NCBI GenBank assembly: GCA_964475375.1
Contig: CAYYWI010000003.1
Location: 1,719-65,718 of the forward strand
Length of the DNA: 64,000 nt
Reading direction: 5' to 3'
Source of the DNA: an uncultured Dehalococcoidia bacterium
GTDB lineage: Bacteria; Chloroflexota; Dehalococcoidia; UBA2247; RBG-13-53-26
A program made the position numbers and the translations under genes. Of this stretch, positions 10,056-52,741 are shown one piece after another (positions within the stretch are counted from its first letter, which is position 1; every line of letters starts with the position of its first letter). Below the pieces are notes generated by a model. That model was not told where the DNA came from, did not search any database, and was given only the letters and a program-made list of their open reading frames with translations.

Positions 10056-10093
10056 GGGACACCCCCAGACCCCCGGCAGCGTTCCGCTGCACC
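10056..10093. repeat. Family B intergenic element, copy 2
   Basis: GGGACACCCCCAGACCCCCGGC followed by hairpin GCAGCG-TTC-CGCTGC then ACCG. The hairpin sequence differs from the other copies but stays complementary. Confidence 0.6.
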
Positions 10094-26423: not shown

Positions 26424-27335
26424 CTACGTTGGAGTGATCTGGTACTTGCTCAGGATCACAGCATTCTTGTCATCAAAGAAGAGTCTCTTCATGTCGGAGA
26501 GTGGCTTCTCCCATAGCTTGTTCAGCATGACCTCAAGGGTCTGGATGTCCAGGAGCATCTGCTCTTTCATGTCTATGAAGTGACTCTGCAGCTTGTCCGG
26601 ATCTTCGGCCGCCTTGAACACGGCCGGCCATTTTCTGTAGTCCTGTATGTACTCCTTCCGGGGAACCAGCACGATATCGCCGACAACTATAACCCTGCCT
26701 ATCTGGAAGTTGCGCATAATCGCGTCCCTGAACTCCCGGAGCTTCCTCGTGTGCACCTTGTACTCTTTCCACTCGTTAGACCCTTCAAAATACTCATCCA
26801 GAACGTTCTGGCCTCCGGGCGACGCCACCGGTCTCACATTGCCTCTCCCAGGGAGGCTGTCGCAACGCTCCTCCGCGGGCTTCTGGAAATCCTCCCTCTT
26901 TGCCAGTTGTGGAATCACGCCTCTCCGGCCGGTGCTCTCCAGGACGACAGAATATGCCCCCTGCAGGAAGTCCTCCGCCAGATCACAGGCTGCCGCCAGA
27001 TGGGTGTAGAAATCCTCGAAGGACGACAGTCTCGGGCTCATCACGTGGTCATAGCCGCAGACCAGGTGCATGAACATGGAGTAGTGAAGAGAGGCCAGAT
27101 CCAGGATGTCTTCAGAAACATGCTGCCTCGGCAGACTCCTCTTGCACTGATCGGTGACATTAGCCTCCATCCTCTTTGTGATGGGGACCACAAAGTGCCT
27201 CCAGAAATCCTCGCAATGGGGGAACCTGTCCTTGAGCAAGGGCCAGTACGACTTCTCGTAGTAATCGCCGTCATTGGCGAAGTAGGTCTTCTTGATGGTC
27301 TCCATGGCGCTGCCTAGTGTGACAATGTACTCCAC
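26424..27335 (-). CDS. hypothetical protein (orphan, no recognisable domain)
   Basis: Clean 303-aa ORF with genome-like codon usage. No motif recognised. Confidence 0.5.
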   Translation of the reverse strand: MEYIVTLGSAMETIKKTYFANDGDYYEKSYWPLLKDRFPHCEDFWRHFVVPITKRMEANVTDQCKRSLPRQHVSEDILDLASLHYSMFMHLVCGYDHVMSPRLSSFEDFYTHLAAACDLAEDFLQGAYSVVLESTGRRGVIPQLAKREDFQKPAEERCDSLPGRGNVRPVASPGGQNVLDEYFEGSNEWKEYKVHTRKLREFRDAIMRNFQIGRVIVVGDIVLVPRKEYIQDYRKWPAVFKAAEDPDKLQSHFIDMKEQMLLDIQTLEVMLNKLWEKPLSDMKRLFFDDKNAVILSKYQITPT

Positions 27336-27425
27336 TTTCTCAGGCCTCCCTCGACTGTAGCTGGATAATATGTGGTTCCACCGGGCAAAAAGTCCATCGG
27401 CGGTGCAAAGCTCAGGTTGATCCCA

Positions 27426-27453
27426 TTGACAATTACTGTAGAGACTCTAACAT
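27426..27453 (+). promoter_or_regulatory. Sigma70-like promoter candidate (TTGACA-16-TAACAT) upstream of the CoA-binding gene
   Basis: Hexamers seen in sequence about 100 nt before the 27557 start. An alternative TTGCTA-18-TACAAT sits nearer the start. Confidence 0.3.
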
Positions 27454-27556
27454 GTGCAGGCTGGAGTATTCAACTTCGGGATGAGCAGGTGATAATGTGT
27501 ATGCTGGCCTTTCTTGCTATCGACGGCAACGCGCGAGTACAATCTAGCCTAGCGCG

Positions 27557-28996
27557 ATGTCACTCGATGCCATTTTCAACCCTCGCTCAATTGCGGTCGT
27601 CGGTGCCACAGGGACCCCGGTAGCCGCTCCGAATGCTCCTGCCACCTCCTTCAATGCCCATACCCAGATCTTCATGTATACACTGATTGACTGGGGCTAT
27701 CCAGGACACATCTACCCGGTCAACACCAAAGGCGATGAAATCCGCGGGTTGAAGGTCTACAGGAGCTTGAGAGATATCCCCGGGCCGGTGGATTATGTCA
27801 TCTGCATCGTCCCGGCGGAGGCTACTCCGGGATTGGTCCAGGACTGCGTGGCCAAGGGCGTGAAAGGCCTTCACCTGTACACGGCTGGTTTTGCTGAAAC
27901 CGGTCTGGCTGACAAGAGCACACTTCAGGCCGATCTGGTCAGGGTGGCCCGCAGCGGTGGAGTCCGCATGATCGGCCCCAACTGCATGGGCATATACTGC
28001 CCGAAGATGGGAATGACCTATGGTCCCAACTTCCCGAGGGAGCCCGGCAATGTGGCCTTCATCTCGCAGAGCGGCAGCTACACCCTGTTGCTGGTCCGGG
28101 CGGCGGCGGCACGCGGTTTGCGTTTCAGCAAGGTGGTAAGCTACGGCAATGCCAGCGACCTGAACGAGATTGATCTCCTGGACTACCTGGCGGATGATTC
28201 CGACACGGAGTTCATCGGGGCCTACATCGAGGGGACGAGGAATGGGCCGACCGTGGCGAGGGTACTGGCCAAAGCCGCTTCGAAGAAGCCGACGATAATC
28301 ATAAAGAGGGGCAGCACGGAGGCAGGGAAGAGGGGAGCCAACACTCACACCGGAGCCTTGGCCGGAGACGACTCAGTCTGGGACAGCATGCTCAGGCAGT
28401 GCGGCGCTATCCGGGTGGAGGACTTCGAGGAGATGGCCGATCTCCTGACAACGTTCGCTTTCTTCCGCCTGCCGCGGAGCCGCAGGGCGGTGCTGTTCGG
28501 TGTGGGCGGCGGGGCCGGGGTGCGGGCGTCGGACGAGTGTGAGGCCGGTGGTTTGACTTTGCCTCCGATACCGGAGGAGTTGAGGGCAGAGCTGGCGCGA
28601 TCGCTGACAACAGCGGGAACTATGCTCAGGAACCCCGTGGACCCGGGCCACTATGCACGCGACTGGACGGATATGATGCAGCGGCTGGATAAGTGGGAAG
28701 ATGCGGACATGCTGCTGTGGCAGATCGCCCCGGACATCGAGGCTCTACAAGCGGACGACTTCCTGCAGTACATATACATGATGAGGCTCAACACGCTCAA
28801 GACATTCAAGAGCTTGAGCAAACCCAAGGCCGTGATTGTGCATGCTGTGGAAAGTGACGTCGGCCTTCAGGCGTTGATCGAAACTCGGAAGGCATGCGCA
28901 CAGAACAAGGTGGCCTTCTACCCATCGATATACCGCGCGGCCCGCGCCATAGGGCGGTATATGGACTACTGCGAACGGCACGGTCGCAACACATAA
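27557..28996 (+). CDS. CoA-binding protein, acetate--CoA ligase (ADP-forming)-like
   Basis: N-terminal CoA-binding Rossmann motif (SIAVVGATG...YPVN...VDYVICIVP) and a succinyl-CoA-synthetase-alpha-like motif (GPNCMGIY...FISQSGS). Confidence 0.8.
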   Translation: MSLDAIFNPRSIAVVGATGTPVAAPNAPATSFNAHTQIFMYTLIDWGYPGHIYPVNTKGDEIRGLKVYRSLRDIPGPVDYVICIVPAEATPGLVQDCVAKGVKGLHLYTAGFAETGLADKSTLQADLVRVARSGGVRMIGPNCMGIYCPKMGMTYGPNFPREPGNVAFISQSGSYTLLLVRAAAARGLRFSKVVSYGNASDLNEIDLLDYLADDSDTEFIGAYIEGTRNGPTVARVLAKAASKKPTIIIKRGSTEAGKRGANTHTGALAGDDSVWDSMLRQCGAIRVEDFEEMADLLTTFAFFRLPRSRRAVLFGVGGGAGVRASDECEAGGLTLPPIPEELRAELARSLTTAGTMLRNPVDPGHYARDWTDMMQRLDKWEDADMLLWQIAPDIEALQADDFLQYIYMMRLNTLKTFKSLSKPKAVIVHAVESDVGLQALIETRKACAQNKVAFYPSIYRAARAIGRYMDYCERHGRNT

Positions 28997-29259
28997 GCGC
29001 TGGCATCCCCCAGCCGGAGTTCAAATCCAATCATGACTGTACTTTGAATTTCTTGCCGCCTTCCTGGCAGATGCGCTGGATGATTATCTTTCCCCAGTGT
29101 GCATTCTGGGCGATATCCGACACCATGGTGGCCCACGCTCCAACGAAGTAGAAATTCGATAGTTGAACCTCAACCTGGTTTTTATGCCGTGGGAGTGCCT
29201 CTACAGAATCTCGATTATCTGTTCGGCGACCCTCTGTTTTTCCTGATTGAGGCGAGGTG

Positions 29260-29289
29260 TTGACAAAAATTAATAATTAAGACTATGAT
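29260..29289 (+). promoter_or_regulatory. Strong sigma70-like promoter (TTGACA-18-TATGAT) in an AT-rich island upstream of the DUF2089 operon
   Basis: Consensus -35 and near-consensus -10 seen in sequence. A local AT-rich stretch (29265..29340) stands out in the GC-rich genome. Confidence 0.55.
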
Positions 29290-29346
29290 AGTTCAGACAA
29301 ATTAATACTGATATTAAGCTTTATGATATAAAACAGGTGATCGAGG

Positions 29347-29709
29347 ATGGCTAGAGACTGGCAAGAACTGACAAAGATGACTCAAGGCAAGCCGGTAACA
29401 GTGGAACGCGTGCGTGTGGCGGATACAGATATTACTATCGAGGGGAGTTTTTCGCTCCCGCCGCTGGCTAGTTTATCCGCCGAGGACCAGGTCTTCGTCA
29501 TGGCCTTCGTCCGCTGTCATGGCACCATCAAGGAGATGGAAGAGATGTTTGGCATAAGCTACCCCACAGTGAAGAATCGGCTTAACCGGATCGCCCGGCA
29601 GCTTGAGTTTGTTGAGACCGTGAAGGTCTCACCAGCGGAAGAAGCGATCGGCGGCCTTGAACGCGGTGAAATCTCTGTCGACGAGGCGATGAGGAGGCTA
29701 TCGGAATGA
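29347..29709 (+). CDS. DUF2089-family protein (zinc-ribbon + HTH-like)
   Basis: Size and architecture typical of DUF2089 (MAFVRCHGTIKEMEEMFGISYPTVKNRLNRI helix-turn-helix segment). Confidence 0.6.
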   Translation: MARDWQELTKMTQGKPVTVERVRVADTDITIEGSFSLPPLASLSAEDQVFVMAFVRCHGTIKEMEEMFGISYPTVKNRLNRIARQLEFVETVKVSPAEEAIGGLERGEISVDEAMRRLSE

Positions 29710-29984
29710 AGCGGCCACCCACGTTGATGCACATGAGAATCGAGGGGGAGAGAGGTGGATTCGGCTTATGGCTGCCGCTTTTCCTGATGCTGCCGCTGGC
29801 ACTGGTGGTGTTCACCATCCTGTCCCCGCTGATATTGGTGGCAACCATCGTTCTGTGGCCGACTGGCTGGGGGAAGAGAGCATTACTCACTCTGAGAGCC
29901 GCAATCGAGGTTTTCTGGTCGATACGTGGTCTCAGCGTCGATGTTCACAGTAGTCGTCAAAGCGTGTCGATTTCAGTCGTGTAG
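29706..29984 (+). CDS. small membrane protein (DUF2089 operon member)
   Basis: 4-nt overlap with the upstream gene; two TM helices. Confidence 0.5.
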   Translation: MKRPPTLMHMRIEGERGGFGLWLPLFLMLPLALVVFTILSPLILVATIVLWPTGWGKRALLTLRAAIEVFWSIRGLSVDVHSSRQSVSISVV

Positions 29985-30006
29985 CCGAGTGAAGGAGGAC
30001 AAAGTC

Positions 30007-30450
30007 ATGTCAGACAACAAGAGGAAAATCCTGGAGATGCTGGCTCAGAATAAGATCAGTGCCGACGATGCCTATCGCCTGCTCGGTGCGATAGAGGGGG
30101 GGGAGAGCAGAAGCGACAGCACTGGTAGGGCCGAGACTGCCGTCAAAGCCAAGCCGAAATACTTTCGCGTTACGGTAGTGCCGAACCCCGAAGAGGAGCG
30201 GTCCGGCAATTACGACCGGGTGAACATACGCGTGCCCATGTCGCTGATACGGGCCGGCATTAAGCTGACCTCTCTGATACCGTCCGAAGCCCGGGACAAG
30301 GTAGATTCGGCACTGCATGAAAAAGGCATTGACTTCGATATACGCCACATGAAACCCGAAGAAATCGAGGATCTCATCGGGGCCCTGAGCGATCTTGAAG
30401 TGGATGTCACAAGCAAGACAGGAGAGAAGGTTAGGGTGTTCGTTGAATGA
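30007..30450 (+). CDS. hypothetical protein with SHOCT-like N-terminal motif
   Basis: Perfect SD GAAGGAGGA before ATG 30007. ILEMLAQNKISADDAYRLLGAIE resembles the SHOCT motif. Confidence 0.55.
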   Translation: MSDNKRKILEMLAQNKISADDAYRLLGAIEGGESRSDSTGRAETAVKAKPKYFRVTVVPNPEEERSGNYDRVNIRVPMSLIRAGIKLTSLIPSEARDKVDSALHEKGIDFDIRHMKPEEIEDLIGALSDLEVDVTSKTGEKVRVFVE

Positions 30451-30618
30451 AAGCGCTTTCGATGGCGAAAACTGGCATGCGCCCGAGTGCGTGATTCGCA
30501 GTAATGAGGAGGTGCTTTGATATCTGAGATCAAGAAACCGTACCCGGCGAGCTGTTGGTGGACTATCCCGACCGCGAGCTGAACCGGCTGACTAAAAAAG
30601 GCTGAGTAGGAGGAGAAC

Positions 30619-30756
30619 GTGAAGGAAGCATCTATAGGAGGGACTCTCTGGTTTGCCGGGTGGCTGTTCACTATAGGCTTTGCCCATATGGTGTGGTGGA
30701 AGATCATTCTGGGAATAGTAGTTTGGCCGTTCTTCCTGGGTAATCATCTCGCCTAA
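30619..30756 (+). CDS. candidate 45-aa small membrane protein
   Basis: GTG start 8 nt after TAGGAGGAGAAC. Encodes VKEASIGGTLWFAGWLFTIGFAHMVWWKIILGIVVWPFFLGNHLA; found by hand-reading the + strand, too short for the ORF track. Confidence 0.25.
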   Translation: MKEASIGGTLWFAGWLFTIGFAHMVWWKIILGIVVWPFFLGNHLA

Positions 30757-31004
30757 GCCAAACCAGGACTTCTACTAAGATCGCTTCTCCACGGGGTCCG
30801 GGACAAGCGCCGAAATCCTGGTTTCCAGAGGCATTGATGGATCTTCAACTGGCGGAATAGCCAAACTAAGCCGAATGGACCATCTTCCAGACCAAATGCC
30901 GCAAAGCCTGGCGCGATGGCTCCGAGCGGACAGGCCTCCAGACACCACCCGCAGCCGGCACAACGGGCCTTGTCCAGCCTGATCGGCTTCATCACCGAGA
31001 CCAC
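30753..31004 (-). pseudogene. remnant / duplicated 3' fragment of the 4Fe-4S ferredoxin gene (32131..32556)
   Basis: About 70 nt near-identical to 32255..32330. Encodes IRLDKARCAGCGWCLEACP(L/F)GAIA and then diverges; no N-terminal part is present. Confidence 0.6.
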
Positions 31005-31167
31005 GGGCCCGCAGCAAGACGATCTGCGACGTAGTGGAGTTGCCTGCCGGCCACTGCACCCTCGCCGTCGGCTATCCGGCCGAGCAGTTCTTCCGGCTGG
31101 TGCCGTGAAATCCGCCGAATGTCCAGTCTGCCGAACGTGAGAGGACTGTGCGAGATACTCTATGAGT

Positions 31168-31572
31168 CTAATCCAGTTGCGGCCAGCCTTTGTTGTCGTT
31201 ACCGATGTGCAGTACCCCGTACAAACTGGCGATGCTAACCAGCACGGTTATAGTTGGCCATACCATGTTCAAGTCGAGCAGGATATCAACAATGAGCCCA
31301 GTCGCGTTTACCGCACAATATCCCCAGAACCCCCATTTCTTCCACTTGAACAGAGCAATGACGCAAATAATCTGCAGAATCAGCAATGCTATCAGAACCG
31401 GGGCTGTCCACTGCGGCGCATCCCTGGGCGTCAAAGATACAGCATCCCCGGCCAGATAGAGCGTTATGGCCACCATGCTGCTTGCGATGATTAGAACCAG
31501 CCATCCCGTGAGGCATCCGTGCCTTTTCTTTCTCCTGTCAGTCGCGGGAATTTCCGTAGAGCGTTGCATCAC
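31168..31572 (-). CDS. hypothetical membrane protein
   Basis: Four predicted TM helices; no domain recognised. Confidence 0.5.
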   Translation of the reverse strand: MMQRSTEIPATDRRKKRHGCLTGWLVLIIASSMVAITLYLAGDAVSLTPRDAPQWTAPVLIALLILQIICVIALFKWKKWGFWGYCAVNATGLIVDILLDLNMVWPTITVLVSIASLYGVLHIGNDNKGWPQLD

Positions 31573-31839
31573 ACAACTCCTTAGCAGATTGTCTCAGAGT
31601 CCCGCAGGGCTGTGCCCACCAATGCGCATCCTCATTCTCCGACGAAACCTTCAGGAAATGCAACCGCATCTCCTTCTTGAACATGGACCATCTCACGGAG
31701 TAGGAGCGAAACATGTTTCTTCCCTACGCGGGGCGTGGCCTATACGCAATGCAGGCGCTCCGGCAACACAACCCCGGCATCAACCCGGAAAGGACGGCTC
31801 TGCGCCGGGCGATTGCCCCAAGACGCGTAGCGTGGTATG

Positions 31840-31867
31840 TAGGCGCAACGCATGCGTTGCGCCTACG
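31840..31867. repeat. Perfect 28-bp palindrome GTAGGCGCAACGCATGCGTTGCGCCTAC
   Basis: Seen in sequence: the reverse complement equals the forward sequence, centred on GCATGC. Confidence 0.9.
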
Positions 31868-31871
31868 TCAT

Positions 31872-31897
31872 AGAGGCATGGCATGCCATGCCTCTAC
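31872..31897. repeat. Perfect 26-bp palindrome TAGAGGCATGGCATGCCATGCCTCTA
   Basis: Seen in sequence: lies 4 nt after the 28-bp palindrome and is also centred on GCATGC. Confidence 0.9.
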
Positions 31898-32032
31898 ACA
31901 AGGCGTATCGACCGGCGGTGGTGTTTGTCAGGGTCGTAGCCCATGTATGTTCAAGCAATCCATGTTCGCTGTGGGATCACCTGTGGTGGGCACAGCCCAC
32001 CCTGCGGGACTTGGCCTTCCTCTCATCAGAGT

Positions 32033-32063
32033 CTTTTCAACCCCCTGGCCCCCATTCTTGGGG
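32033..32063 (-). repeat. Family A motif, extended copy (rc: CCCCAAGAATGGGGGCCAGGGGGTTGAAAAG)
   Basis: 30-nt near-identity with the copy at 34337..34366. Confidence 0.6.
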
Positions 32064-32081
32064 AATAGGGAGAAGAGAACT

Positions 32082-32126
32082 GGGGGACACCCCCAGACCC
32101 CCGGCGGGACAAGTCCCTGCACCCTC
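32082..32126. repeat. Family B intergenic element, copy 4
   Basis: GGGGGACACCCCCAGACCCCCGGC followed by an imperfect hairpin GCGGGAC-AA-GTCCCTGC then ACCCTC. Lies 5 nt after the ferredoxin stop. Confidence 0.55.
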
Positions 32127-32130
32127 TTTT

Positions 32131-32556
32131 TTATCCCCTGGCTGAGACATGAAGGCTGAGCGCCTTCTGAGGGCAGAACGCAATGCAGGCAGGTTGAGTC
32201 TTGTTAGAGCACAGGTCACACATGATCACCGTTTTGGTGCTCTCGTCGATGGCGATGGCTCCGAACGGACAGGCCTCCAGACACCACCCGCAGCCAGCGC
32301 AGCGGGCCTTGTCCAGCCTGATCGTATTGGTGGAATCGTCCAGGCTCAAGGCGTTCCTGGGGCAGGCTTTGACGCAAGGTGTGTTACGGCAGACATGGCA
32401 GGAGACGACATCCAGCAGAGATGGTGCCGGCTGAAGCACCCTGATCCTGGACATCTCCAGGTCAAACCTGCCTCCTTTCGCTGCCGAGCAGACGAACTCG
32501 CAGATCATGCAGCCGGTGCACTTATCTCTGTCGCACTGTATGTGGCGGCGCTCCAT
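32131..32556 (-). CDS. 4Fe-4S dicluster ferredoxin-like protein (aldehyde oxidoreductase partner)
   Basis: Multiple CxxCxxCxxxCP motifs (CTGCMICEFVC, CAGCGWCLEACP, CDLCSNKTQPACIAFCP). Confidence 0.85.
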   Translation of the reverse strand: MERRHIQCDRDKCTGCMICEFVCSAAKGGRFDLEMSRIRVLQPAPSLLDVVSCHVCRNTPCVKACPRNALSLDDSTNTIRLDKARCAGCGWCLEACPFGAIAIDESTKTVIMCDLCSNKTQPACIAFCPQKALSLHVSARG

Positions 32557-34336
32557 GCCAGTTTCCTTTCAGCATCTCCATGATGTCGCTCATCCCCAAG
32601 GCTTCGAGCTTCTCTTTTGAGATGATACCTTCGGGGGTCCAGCCGCGAGCAGAGTAGTAGACGTCTATCGCGGCTCTCAGTTCTTCCTCGGAAAGAACAA
32701 CTCCATCGGCTTTGCCGGATGTTATCGGGTCTTTGAACAAGCGCGGCGGCAACCGGTCGTCGGCGCGCTTCCATCCCTCCCGGATGTTGTAGGCCTTCTT
32801 CAGGTTGTTGATCCTCTCGCCTGCCTGCCGGAGTTCGGCAGCGCTCATGGGCATCCCGGTAGCCAGGGCGTAGAGTCGGGCTGCCTCCTGCGGGAAGTCC
32901 TGGAAATGGTCCAGCACTCGCGGGCAGACGGCTATCGACTCACCAGCGGCAGCCAGGTCCTCTCGGTCCCTGAAGCTCATCGTGGGGTCTTGGTGCCCAT
33001 CCAGCATCGCCGTGCTGAGCCCGACCGCCAGATCCAGTGCCAGACCATCAGTGTTTCTTGGATCGCAGCCAGACATTTCCAGGCCTTTGACGTGCATTGC
33101 CCAGTGGTCGGCACCGTGGTCAACCCTGGCGGCTGCCCGACTGACACCCTCTGCCAGAAGATTGCCGATGCCACTTCGCTGTCCGATCCGGTGGATCGTC
33201 TCCAGGATGGCATCGGGGTTACCGAATGTGAGGTCCAGACCATCAGTATCCTTCCGAGACAAGAGTTCCTGCTCGAAGCTTTCCATGCCCCAGGCCAGGG
33301 ACGCGCCGGTGCTCACGGGATCGAGACCATAGGCCTGACACAGCCCCAAGGCTCGCAATATGACCGGCAGCGAGTACATCCCGCACAGCGGTCCCAGGGC
33401 TGCCAGTGCTTCCTGTTCCAGCACAGCTTCCTCGTCTGAATGCGGATCATCCGTTGTTCTGTACACATGTTGACACGCAACAGGACAGGCGGGACAGGCA
33501 ATCGTCTTGACCAGATGTTGTTTGTCAGCGCAGTCCGCAGCCAGGCTCCCGGCACCATCAACAATGGACTGCTGGTAGTTGCGGGCAGGCAGGGAACACC
33601 GCCGGCTGGTGGTGTTCAGACAAGACGCCGGCGTGAGATCATTGGCGCGTCTCTTCAGATCGGTGTTGAGTGCCGCGCACAGGTCCTGCATTGCGCCGAG
33701 ATCATGAACGCTGACAGGGCCGGTGCCTCTGACAGCCATGGCCTTCAGCTTCTTCGATCCCATAACCGCGCCCGGACCACCTCTATGCGAGAGGCGGAAG
33801 CTGTCTTTGATGGCGGCGAAACGTACCAGCTTCTCTCCGGCGGAGCCGATTGATGCCACCTGCACCCGGCTGTCGCCGGTCTCGTGCCTGATTGCGGCTT
33901 CCGTCTCCAAACAGCCTTTTCCTGCCAGACGGTCCGCTTTGCGGAAATGAACTATGTTGTCGTCCACGAACAGGTAGACGGGAGATTGAGCTGCCCCGGT
34001 GACAACTACCGCATCGTAGCCCGCTCTCTTCAGAGCTAAAGACCAGCGGCCTGAGGATATGGAGCAGTTCACCAGGCCGGTCAGCGGAGACTTGGTAACC
34101 ACGGCATGTACAGCAGAAGCCGGAGCCATGGTTCCAGAGAGCCCTCCGCAGGCAAAAACGATTGGATTGTCCGGGCTCAGCGCATCAGCGCCCGGCTTTG
34201 ACCATTCCACCACAAGCCGGATGCCCAGACCCGTACCGCCCAGGTAGTCCCTGAGCAGTCGCTCGGGGAGCTCCCTCACTTCTGTCTTCTGATTGGTTAG
34301 ATCGACAACAAGGTACTTTCCGCTATATGAATTCAT
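32522..34336 (-). CDS. aldehyde:ferredoxin oxidoreductase (tungsten-containing AOR family)
   Basis: MNSYSGKYLVVDLTNQKTEV...YLGGTGLG is an AOR N-terminal domain. About 600 aa with AOR-family C-terminal domains. Confidence 0.88.
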   Translation of the reverse strand: MNSYSGKYLVVDLTNQKTEVRELPERLLRDYLGGTGLGIRLVVEWSKPGADALSPDNPIVFACGGLSGTMAPASAVHAVVTKSPLTGLVNCSISSGRWSLALKRAGYDAVVVTGAAQSPVYLFVDDNIVHFRKADRLAGKGCLETEAAIRHETGDSRVQVASIGSAGEKLVRFAAIKDSFRLSHRGGPGAVMGSKKLKAMAVRGTGPVSVHDLGAMQDLCAALNTDLKRRANDLTPASCLNTTSRRCSLPARNYQQSIVDGAGSLAADCADKQHLVKTIACPACPVACQHVYRTTDDPHSDEEAVLEQEALAALGPLCGMYSLPVILRALGLCQAYGLDPVSTGASLAWGMESFEQELLSRKDTDGLDLTFGNPDAILETIHRIGQRSGIGNLLAEGVSRAAARVDHGADHWAMHVKGLEMSGCDPRNTDGLALDLAVGLSTAMLDGHQDPTMSFRDREDLAAAGESIAVCPRVLDHFQDFPQEAARLYALATGMPMSAAELRQAGERINNLKKAYNIREGWKRADDRLPPRLFKDPITSGKADGVVLSEEELRAAIDVYYSARGWTPEGIISKEKLEALGMSDIMEMLKGNWHGAPPHTVRQR

Positions 34337-34366
34337 TCAACCCCCTGGCCCCCAGTCTTGGGGGGA
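34337..34366 (-). repeat. Family A motif, extended copy abutting the AOR start codon (rc: CCCCAAGACTGGGGGCCAGGGGGTTGA-ATG)
   Basis: Seen in sequence; the GGGGG run lies 4 nt before the AOR ATG. Confidence 0.6.
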
Positions 34367-51889: not shown

Positions 51890-52741
51890 ATGGCAGTGAG
51901 AAAGATTCACGCTGAAGACATCACGCAAGCTGTGGCTTCCATGTGCCAGGAGGCCAATTTCTTCCTGCCTGAAGACGTCCTCGATGCCATCAAGAAAGCC
52001 ATAGACACCGAAGTATCGCCCCTGGGAAAGACCACCCTGGAGCGCATTGCGGAGAATGCGTCCATCGCCGCCCGAGAGCGCGTCCCTTTGTGCCAGGACT
52101 GCGGCGTAGCAGTGGTTCTCCTCAGATTAGGGCAGGAGGTCCACGTCACGGGAGGCCACCTCTACAAGGCCATCGAGGAAGGCGTGCATAGAGGCTATGC
52201 CGACGGATACTTGCGCAAGTCGATGGTCCGGCACCCATTCTCATCAAGAACAAACACCAAGGACAACTGCCCGCCGGTCGTCCACACCGAGATCGTGCCA
52301 GGAGACAAGCTTACCATCATAGTCATGCCTAAGGGCGGAGGATCAGAGAACATGAGCCGCCTCGCCATGCTTCCACCGGCTCAGGGAAGGGAGGGGGTGA
52401 TCGACTTCGTGGTGAAAGCTGTCGATGAAGCCGGCAGCAATCCCTGCCCGCCTGTGATCGTAGGAGTCGGCATCGGCGGCACTATTGAGAAAGCATCGCT
52501 TCTGGCCAAAGAAGCCCTGCTGCGGCCACTGAGCCAGCCAAATGCAGACCCTGAAGTGGCTGATATCGAAGAGGATCTGCTGAAGAAGATCAATTCCCTC
52601 GGGATCGGACCGCAGGGATTCGGCGGCAGCACCACCGCCCTGGCCGTCCACGTGGAGGTCTTCCCCTGCCACATAGCCAGCCTGCCGGTCGCGGTTAACA
52701 TTCAGTGTCACAGCGCCCGCCACAAGGAAGTCACACTTTAG
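51890..52741 (+). CDS. Fe-S hydro-lyase, class I fumarate hydratase / L(+)-tartrate dehydratase alpha subunit
   Basis: Collinear with FumA N-terminal / TtdA (CQDCG..., cluster-ligand cysteines). No beta-subunit gene follows. Confidence 0.8.
   Translation: MAVRKIHAEDITQAVASMCQEANFFLPEDVLDAIKKAIDTEVSPLGKTTLERIAENASIAARERVPLCQDCGVAVVLLRLGQEVHVTGGHLYKAIEEGVHRGYADGYLRKSMVRHPFSSRTNTKDNCPPVVHTEIVPGDKLTIIVMPKGGGSENMSRLAMLPPAQGREGVIDFVVKAVDEAGSNPCPPVIVGVGIGGTIEKASLLAKEALLRPLSQPNADPEVADIEEDLLKKINSLGIGPQGFGGSTTALAVHVEVFPCHIASLPVAVNIQCHSARHKEVTL

Follow-up and report, generated by a model that had tools for sequence, protein, structure and literature searches.

What are two long, perfect palindromes doing side by side in the gap downstream of the genes for an aldehyde:ferredoxin oxidoreductase (AOR) and a ferredoxin in an uncultured Dehalococcoidia bacterium? 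The original prediction, made from the 64-kb stretch of DNA analysed here (the window, 64,000 nt in length), offered paired operator sites for a dimeric regulator, cruciform-forming sequences or the footprint of a recombination or restriction event. The features that frame the question are the following.

31839-31866: P1, GTAGGCGCAACGCATGCGTTGCGCCTAC, a 28-bp perfect palindrome by sequence and symmetry
31871-31896: P2, TAGAGGCATGGCATGCCATGCCTCTA, a 26-bp perfect palindrome by sequence and symmetry
31870-31897: P2 with its feet; of the two strands, the minus strand alone has the G foot (base 31897)
31573-32130: the gap that holds P1 and P2, about 559 bp, downstream of the ferredoxin gene and upstream of a membrane ORF
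31168-31572, minus strand: membrane ORF of 134 aa, without a Pfam hit; real homologues exist
32131-32556, minus strand: 4Fe-4S ferredoxin gene
32522-34336, minus strand: AOR gene, with AFOR_N and AFOR_C domains
32080-32096, minus strand: terminator-like hairpin CTGGGGGTGTCCCCCAG with a T-rich tail behind it, 35-50 nt past the ferredoxin stop; a related copy of this hairpin lies at 10056-10077

Sequence, Symmetry and Folding of the Palindromes

Both palindromes are present as predicted, 28 and 26 bp long, centred on GCATGC and separated by 4 nt (TCAT on the plus strand), with a start at 31839 that is one base off the original coordinate. Their length had been called improbable by chance, and we agree: base composition leads one to expect ~3e-4 palindromes of 28 bp and ~1e-3 of 26 bp per window, so the adjacent pair is not a chance product, and the longest palindrome in 50 shuffles of the window reached 24 bp. 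In the 64-kb window, P1 and P2 stand alone in length; the longest perfect palindrome besides them measures 16 bp. The half-sites of P1 and P2 are identical at 9 of 13 positions (TAGnnGCAnnGCA), and each difference between them is mirrored, and hence compensated, on the opposite arm. P1 carries GTAG at the 5' end of both strands and is closed by CTAC, whereas P2 in the window has the GTAG foot on the minus strand, the plus strand reading ATAG, with CTAC closing one side. As single-stranded DNA, P1 is predicted to form a hairpin with a 12-bp stem and a 4-nt loop (dG -14.4 kcal/mol, z -5.7) and P2 one with an 11-bp stem and a 4-nt loop (dG -11.3 kcal/mol), and the two fold as separate hairpins, each on its own.

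The remaining window is ordinary chromosome, with tRNA synthetases, RuvB, riboflavin genes, an ABC transporter and IorAB. Exact-sequence look-ups with the ferredoxin and membrane proteins gave no match, and two Logan contigs with the same AOR stop within the ferredoxin gene, short of the palindromes. The ferredoxin gene fragment of 73 nt at 30913-30985 duplicates 32252-32324 at 94.5% identity and recurs in the close relative described below; nothing was seen that connects its origin with P1 and P2. The original prediction placed the palindromes in a non-coding stretch between the membrane gene and the ferredoxin/AOR genes. The position (31573-32130) was right, but the stretch holds a decayed transposase gene; P1 and P2 lie in an intergenic gap between tandem genes, yet inside a pseudogene.

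A Palindrome Family Dispersed Across Phyla

We scanned one genome per species with the shared skeleton TAGnnGCAnnGCATGCnnTGCnnCTA / TAGNNGCANNGCATGCNNTGCNNCTA (18 specified bases) and recovered at least 119 loci, where roughly 9 chance hits were expected. A second, independent and narrower pattern applied to metagenome contigs recovered at least 120 loci. Among the matches listed, the family extends over some 15 phyla: Chloroflexota, Cyanobacteria, Acidobacteriota, Planctomycetota, Gemmatimonadota, Nitrospirota, Bacteroidota/Chlorobi, Deinococcota, Omnitrophota, Armatimonadota, Patescibacteria, Bacillota, Lentisphaerota, Desulfobacterota and Calditrichota. Both isolates and chromosomes closed with long reads contribute loci; therefore, the family sequence is not an assembly artefact. 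The identical 26-mer TAGGGGCACGGCATGCCGTGCCCCTA makes up 67 of the 127 genome copies among the matches listed, and 108 of these 127 are perfect palindromes at the four unconstrained pairs, against a chance expectation of 0.4%. Because a G precedes nearly all of the genome copies listed (121/127) and a C follows them (120/126), the unit is best described as the 28-mer GTAG…CTAC. Perfect palindromes also account for 123 of the 128 metagenome copies listed and for ~85-95% of the copies listed over both scans. None of the 120 metagenome loci listed contains exact P1 or P2. These differ from the commonest 28-mer by three and two compensated pairs, respectively; both departures of P2 from the family consensus (TAGAGG, GCATGG) recur in other genomes, and the departures of P1 do likewise.

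Variation within the family preserves pairing. In a set of 42 distinct variants, in which the search pattern had fixed 7 of the 12 pairs, 95.6% of the cells are paired and all four free stem pairs co-vary, with 45 double-sided changes vs 9.4±2.7 in shuffled data, a count that none of 500 shuffles reached. The genes next to the copies have little in common. Crude ORF calls on the matches listed assign 26 copies to convergent, 31 to tandem and 5 to divergent gene pairs, usually within tens of nucleotides of a stop codon. The nearest 150 genes of the matches listed fall into 136 unrelated Pfam families, the copies lying downstream of unrelated housekeeping genes, and the Pfam scan of these 150 neighbours revealed no enriched family, nor did a transposase rank among the top families.

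About 20% of the copies listed mark the exact midpoint of a longer palindrome that is particular to the locus, some copies (loci L005, L053 and L066) have tandem half-site duplications, and in cyanobacteria the 28-mer centres an element of roughly 106 nt with 11-nt terminal inverted repeats and unrelated flanks. Within these loci, members of a wider GTAGGGGC…GCCCCTAC family are centred differently (e.g., TTCGCGAA). Target-site duplications were not in evidence, as 2-nt flank matches among the matches listed were direct in 12 of 115 cases vs inverted in 24 of 115. In IMG/VR the exact consensus 28-mer turned up just 3 times, so phages do not carry the family to any notable degree. An Rfam scan of the locus and of 18 family loci returned nothing meaningful.

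A Decayed RAYT Gene Around the Palindromes

REPs are short palindromic repeats for which mobilisation in trans by a single-copy HUH tyrosine transposase, RAYT, has been proposed, and they cluster around the RAYT gene (Bertels and Rainey, 2011, PMC3116915; Nunvar et al., 2010, PMC2817692). The gap around P1 and P2 contains the remnant of such a gene, together with REPs of its own. The rows below refer to P0035, an intact RAYT protein encoded at another locus (L132).

About 31632-31945, minus strand: RAYT (tnpA_REP) pseudogene, most like subclass 2.2
Upstream of P2, minus strand: N-terminal remnant of the RAYT pseudogene
31805-31731, minus strand: P0035 residues 44-68 at 64% identity; HUH mutated (ERLH), stop codon at a conserved W
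31702-31667, minus strand: P0035 residues 74-85 at 92% identity, in another frame
31670-31632, minus strand: P0035 residues 172-183 and the stop at 75% identity; C-terminus
Missing in the window: P0035 residues 86-171, including the catalytic Tyr region
31985-32005, minus strand: upstream REP of the pseudogene, GCAGGGTGGGCTGTGCCCACC, with a TGT loop on a 7-bp stem, its foot being GCAG, not GTAG
31598-31621, plus strand: degenerate downstream REP, one arm destroyed by a 4-nt deletion; kept in the close relative

The link to RAYT surfaced only through targeted tblastn. With E. coli RayT as the query against the loci collected, a minus-strand stretch of the window (31802-31689) right next to the palindromes matched at 42% over 38 aa with E 3.7e-4, and the same query matched the close relative with E 3e-5. 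The window translation RPFRVDAGVVLPERLHCV*ATP corresponds to RPFEINAWVVLPEHMHCIWTLP of E. coli RayT, and BLASTP against the E. coli protein gave E 3e-11. The NCBIfam model NF047646 (REP_Tyr_transpos) matched the sequence reconstructed from the close relative with E 1.7e-6 and 28 bits; the score is far below the cut-off of 80, as expected because the remnant is a fragment. Pfam Y1_Tnp was not detected in the reconstructed remnant. A search with the reconstructed sequence also recovered three intact proteins of 182-186 aa (P0034-P0036), which score 168-199 bits against NF047646 (cut-off 80) and are, by this measure, bona fide REP_Tyr_transpos proteins. We had considered '...LVGTALRDSETIC' as the RAYT 'AIRNTKDY' region and rejected it, as the comparison with P0035 identifies 'AVAFPEGFVGE*', just before it, as the actual C-terminus and reveals the loss of residues 86-171.

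The repeats on the two sides of the remnant complete the picture. The upstream REP at 31985-32005 has one mismatch to GTAGGGTGGGCTGTGCCCACC and forms the right arm of inverted repeats I1 and I4. In L132, GTAGGGTGGGCTGTGCCCACC stands on both sides of the intact RAYT gene for P0035 in inverted orientation, the classical REPtron arrangement. The window has the corresponding outer inverted repeat (24/28 nt), with arms at 31598-31621, which is the degenerate REP, and at 31984-32011. Inverted REPs therefore remain on both sides, one of them degenerate, while of the RAYT ORF with its HUH motif and catalytic Tyr there is a remnant only. Since the REPs of the pseudogene match those of the L132 RAYT, the pseudogene had its own REP family, unlike P1 and P2. 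Judged from its sequence, the locus is a pseudogene and former REPtron, and a decayed RAYT gene with its own REPs, plus two REPs of a second family, accounts for the 559-bp 'non-coding' gap.

The Same Locus in a Close Relative

The original prediction had called for a comparison with relatives. We carried it out on contig L125, which is 95% identical to the window over 27265-31870; both palindromes are kept there, at a different spacing and next to an unrelated segment. P2 is unchanged and present as the full 28-mer GTAGAGGCATGGCATGCCATGCCTCTAC, with GTAG on both strands. P1 reads GTAGACGCAACGCATGCGTTGCATCTAC and has three changes, of which G5/C24 -> A5/T24 is compensated and one uncompensated change breaks the symmetry. 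The distance between the palindromes is 67 nt in L125 vs 4 nt in the window, and the extra inter-palindrome segment encodes ITVGAYFVTMVRGSRVGERLV, a typical RAYT N-terminal strand.

When 30 nt are taken out at each L125 palindrome, a single frame results: …GRYAS|ITVGAYFVT…GERLV|ITTLRVW…RPFRVDAWVVLPEHL…. This restored frame aligns to RAYT N-termini (P0034 residues 17-77, E 6e-7). Because the removal restores the frame, P1 is an insertion in a RAYT reading frame, and its insertion point in L125 is the centre of GGTGAT|ATCACC. P2 was probably inserted into the RAYT ORF as well, to judge from about 5 upstream residues. The HUH motif reads ERLH in the window and EHLR in L125, and these unlike lesions in the two strains mean that decay went on after they split. 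Furthermore, from the ferredoxin stop to the palindromes the two strains carry unrelated sequence (184 nt in the window vs 625 nt with a SHOCT ORF in L125), and of the outer inverted repeat L125 retains the left arm alone. The locus is plastic.

RAYT Genes That Carry the Palindrome

A second type of RAYT is associated with the palindrome family elsewhere. It follows the pattern HHRRSIRLKGYDY…GAYFVT…VMPNHVHGII…FGxPxxGSxPTIIRSFKSA…VWQRNYYEHIIR…YIxNNP; these proteins are of the subclass 2.4 type (NHVH, WQ, YIxNNP) and match NF047646 with E about 1e-16. The palindrome lies within their ORF straight after HUH, where it is read as VGARHAVPL or RGTACRAPT. Such genes occur in 5 of the 119 genome loci listed, with the palindrome inside the ORF in all five, and in L053 identical palindromes also stand on both flanks of the RAYT gene. 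Among the 120 metagenome loci listed, 8 have a subclass 2.4-type RAYT, with the palindrome inside the gene in 4 and within 350 nt of it in 4. The loci with such genes, the palindrome inside or beside them, total 13 among the matches listed. Many homologues of these proteins carry the name 'REP element-mobilizing transposase RayT'. Of the best 120 of at least 7,999 homologues, ~3/4 have a hairpin-derived peptide after HUH, an upper estimate, as the ranking favours proteins that share the insert; VGARHAVPL or RGTACRAPT itself was found in 58 of these best 120, often partly duplicated. The pseudogene adjacent to P1 and P2 is not of subclass 2.4, the subclass expected to mobilise REPs of their type, and no intact RAYT was found in the 64-kb window.

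Comparison With Known REP Systems

These observations agree closely with the description of the subclass 2.4 TnpA_REP proteins (Bertels group 4), which are about 194 aa long, carry NH[IFV]H, WQ and YIxNNP and occur in Cyanobacteria, Bacteroidetes and a range of further phyla (Quentin et al., 2018, BMC Genomics 19:475, PMC6006769). Their REPs are 'double foot', with GT[AG]G at the 5' end and C[TC]AC at the 3' end, and this subclass is unique in having REPs within the tnpAREP gene itself, between HuH and Y, with the frame intact (PMC6006769). The same authors suggested that a double-foot REP may be a collapsed REPIN (PMC6006769). P1 and P2 have the GT[AG]G foot, a basal stem within 7-20 nt and a loop within 2-5 nt, and they are the only 2 copies of their family in the 64-kb window, both at this one locus. 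Feet, RAYT motifs, the in-ORF REP and the phylum scatter were all re-observed here. The difference is one of location: the window copies lie in the N-terminal coding part of a 2.2-like RAYT pseudogene, with no 2.4 gene there.

Similar parallels can be drawn with the GTAG-REP superfamily, in which a GTAG tag is joined to a 6-13 bp stem with a minimal loop and complementary stem variants (Di Nocera, De Gregorio and Rocco, 2013, BMC Genomics 14:522, PMC3733652). Its members form heterodimers with spacers of 1-5 bp or 20-100 bp, favour tandem or convergent intergenic sites, insert within palindromes and form REPtrons, and the SMAG repeats of Stenotrophomonas are grouped with them (PMC3733652). The tag, the complementary variants, the heterodimers, the placement and the REP-flanked RAYTs are alike in the family described here. 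The tag of the GTAG REPs is, however, unpaired and at one end, whereas in the P1/P2 family it is paired and present on both strands. Among supplementary files of Di Nocera et al. (2013), nothing matched GTAGGGGC, GGCATGCC or similar sequences. As in REPIN/RAYT systems, we observed short palindromic repeats with an HUH tyrosine transposase and REPs clustered near the RAYT gene. A REPIN, however, consists of two inverted REPs that pair across a conserved spacer, in contrast to P1 and P2, which fold separately and have a spacer of 4 vs 67 nt.

A search of the literature for the literal palindrome sequence found nothing relevant. Mobile hairpins of about 21-27 nt, alone or nested in larger MITE-like units, are also reported to have been described in Nostoc by Elhai and colleagues in 2008 as small dispersed repeats (SDR) and hairpin-bearing MITEs, and the 28-mer inside the roughly 106-nt cyanobacterial element looks much alike. 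In the texts of PMC6006769 and PMC3733652 we found neither the identity of the 28-mer across about 15 phyla nor two double-foot REPs in a RAYT pseudogene of another subclass. All of the features that we saw nevertheless fit the descriptions by Quentin et al. (2018, PMC6006769) and Di Nocera et al. (2013, PMC3733652).

Origin of the Palindrome Pair

We consider it about 85% probable that P1 and P2 together are a double-foot, GTAG-type REP heterodimer lodged in a decayed RAYT gene of another subclass, a fossil REPtron and not a control element of the AOR/ferredoxin genes. The REP would be a 28-bp non-autonomous mobile DNA hairpin whose guide, GTAG, marks the stem foot on both strands. For the transposition chemistry, which we infer from the literature, the element would fold into a hairpin on single-stranded DNA, a RAYT would recognise the stem and the GTAG foot (in line with the established RAYT/IS200-IS605 biochemistry), and the HUH/Tyr centre of this HUH/Y1 enzyme would cleave and then rejoin the hairpin element. 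The double foot would make either strand usable as a substrate. A RAYT of subclass 2.4 would be the mobiliser of the P1/P2 family, and we infer that this genome has, or once had, such a gene. Both copies would have entered the 5' part of a RAYT gene of the other subclass with its own, different flanking REPs, and the invaded gene would since have decayed: its HUH motif mutated, a stop codon and a frameshift arose, and 86 codons were deleted. Because P1 and P2 lie in a RAYT gene that is of another subclass and has REPs of its own, the locus reads as a fossil REPtron struck by a second REP family. The copies in the window are now most likely inert fossils, active at most as RNA or DNA hairpins.

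Part of the original prediction survives in this reading. Of the options offered, the recombination footprint alone comes close, P1 and P2 being insertions of REP hairpins mobilised by a transposase; the formation of hairpins or cruciforms is central to how REP elements work. The restriction half of the footprint is not supported, nor are the paired operator sites, which are at odds with the variable spacing (4 vs 67 nt), the 136 unrelated neighbour families and the covariation that preserves pairing.

Alternative Explanations

REPs are known to take on roles as RNA hairpins in 3' UTRs. P1 and P2 could likewise now act on the AOR-ferredoxin transcript from its 3' UTR, terminating or attenuating it or blocking 3' exonucleases, a role that would be compatible with a REP origin but that we regard as improbable here, if worth keeping in mind. 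The strength of the two hairpins is in its favour, as is the RNA of the whole gap (about 558 nt), which folds unusually well (z -5.2). Both palindromes are also retained in the relative in spite of about 5% substitutions, and the family prefers sites just past genes or between convergent genes, as GTAG REPs do (PMC3733652). Yet the palindromes are within a pseudogene, 235 nt past the ferredoxin stop and behind the terminator-like hairpin at 32080-32096, which is a better candidate for the operon terminator. A scan for intrinsic terminators listed neither P1 nor P2, and no T-run follows either of them (flanks ATACCACG, CACAAGGC).

A pair of operators for a dimeric regulator of the membrane gene or the operon is very unlikely. 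In its favour are the perfect dyad symmetry, the two related half-sites and, 2 kb from P1 and P2, a gene for a DUF2089 helix-turn-helix protein as a candidate regulator. The evidence from the family and the relative points the other way: the spacing changes from 4 to 67 nt in a 95%-identical relative, in which P1 has three changes, one of them symmetry-breaking; the element is dispersed beside unrelated genes in about 15 phyla; and its variation is compensatory, the sequence itself not being conserved. In addition, the sites are inside a transposase pseudogene, and no promoter-like sites were found when they were sought in 30600-32700.

We give equally little credence to P1 and P2 as the interior of a MITE of roughly 414 bp bounded by the inverted repeat at 31598-31621 and 31984-32011. 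That repeat does enclose the palindromes, and the roughly 106-nt cyanobacterial element with its 11-nt terminal inverted repeats, which the 28-mer centres, offers a precedent. A second copy is absent from the window, however, and we rejected the outer repeat as MITE ends because L125 keeps the left arm only and L132 shows such arms to be REPs that flank an intact RAYT. With arms of the L132 type and a RAYT pseudogene as the enclosed sequence, the unit is a decayed REPtron, not a MITE. Finally, a link to restriction-modification, in the form of clustered or protected SphI-like sites, is suggested by the GCATGC at the centre of both palindromes but can practically be dismissed, as the window contains GCATGC about as often as expected (18 times vs 17.5-19.6), other centres occupy the same loci in the wider family and the proposed check for an SphI-like system saw no restriction-modification genes among the Pfam hits of the window.

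Implications for REP and RAYT Biology

P1 and P2 belong to a known, widespread family of double-foot REPs and are relics of selfish DNA, not a regulatory switch. For annotation, a tempting false lead is gone: no operator pair or restriction site governs the aldehyde:ferredoxin oxidoreductase operon. The locus also explains why short-read assembly and ORF calling fare poorly in its vicinity, with nearby contig breaks and spurious ORF peptides such as VGATHALRL. The current understanding of REPs is unchanged by these results. Palindromes of the P1/P2 type are a convenient marker for double-foot REPs and, with identical 28-mers in many phyla, copies centred in longer palindromes and tandem half-site expansions in RAYT genes, they could help a study of how REPs and RAYTs spread.

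In the usual description, REPs are specific to a lineage and partner a RAYT that is passed on vertically. The 28-mer GTAGGGGCACGGCATGCCGTGCCCCTAC, unchanged in about 15 phyla, might instead reflect a recent inter-phylum spread of the 2.4 RAYT and its double-foot REP, or an exceptionally strict structural constraint, with the window as a case of conflict between REP families; we offer this reading as speculative and rather doubtful. If the inter-phylum reading were true, the pair of 2.4 RAYT and double-foot REP would be unusually promiscuous, and the window would record a conflict between selfish hairpins in which the gene for a rival transposase was disrupted.

Variable DNA and Small Repeats Near the Palindromes

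The stretch from the ferredoxin stop codon to the paired REP palindromes is a replacement hotspot. In this interval the DNA of the window (31948-32130, 184 nt) is unrelated to that of L125, a contig from a relative (327-951, 625 nt), in strains that are otherwise 95% identical. The L125 segment includes a 65-aa SHOCT ORF and also holds two REPs in inverted orientation (GTAGGGTGGG…CCCACC). The two strains share a conserved three-gene cluster downstream of the membrane gene (window 29347-30450; L125 2532-3635): its members are a DUF2089 gene for a helix-turn-helix protein, a membrane ORF of 92 aa and a gene for a SHOCT-like protein.

On the side of the membrane gene opposite the ferredoxin gene, we identified a 73-nt direct copy of the Cys-rich core of the latter (IRLDKARCAGCGWCLEACP), 94.5% identical between positions 30913-30985 and 32252-32324. 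L125 carries such a copy as well. A Logan contig ends inside the ferredoxin gene, probably because of this near-identical duplicate.

Two other small repeats recur in the window. One is a short dispersed motif, TTCAACCCCCTGGCCCCCA(T/G)TCTTGGGG, with copies at:

32036-32063, with no gene behind it
34336-34363, directly upstream of the AOR start codon
51842-51861, minus strand, ahead of a start codon at 51890

The copy preceding AOR likely includes the ribosome-binding site of that gene, and the one lacking a gene may be a relic 5' leader. The other repeat is a 22-mer (GGGACACCCCCAGACCCCCGGC) found in identical form at 32084-32105 and 10056-10077. It folds as a G/C hairpin followed by a T-rich tail, and appears to represent a second family of short repeats that lie between genes and resemble terminators.

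Genomic Settings of the REP Family

Among the matches listed, approximately one-fifth of the family copies lie exactly midway in a longer perfect palindrome that is specific to the locus and adds up to 15 paired nucleotides per side. Copies so placed include:

L015, 6834-6888
L014
L049
L062
L081
L125, 1088-1127

Removal of the 28-mer from the longer palindrome leaves a palindrome without a loop. The central placement could reflect an insertion preference for palindrome centres or an inverted duplication of the flank upon insertion.

In Nostoc and Chroococcales, alignment of five loci (L052, L067, L079, L094 and L024) placed the consensus 28-mer at the centre of an element of ~106 nt. The element is bounded by terminal inverted repeats of 11 nt that match perfectly (TATAGCGGTTC…GAACCGCTATA), and its flanks are unrelated among the loci. 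This element is a MITE-like carrier of the double-foot REP, and resembles the long palindromes that surround GTAG-15 dimers in Anabaena (Di Nocera et al., PMC3733652).

Among the best 120 of at least 7,999 RAYT homologues, the palindrome-encoded segment of subclass 2.4 genes is often partially duplicated (VGARH-VGARHAVPL and HAVPLQ repeats), and in a 311-aa transposase of Thermosynechococcus sp. NK55a (P0090) it has grown to ~30 tandem PPHGM units. These intragenic duplications suggest slippage of the half-hairpin or repeated cleavage and rejoining.
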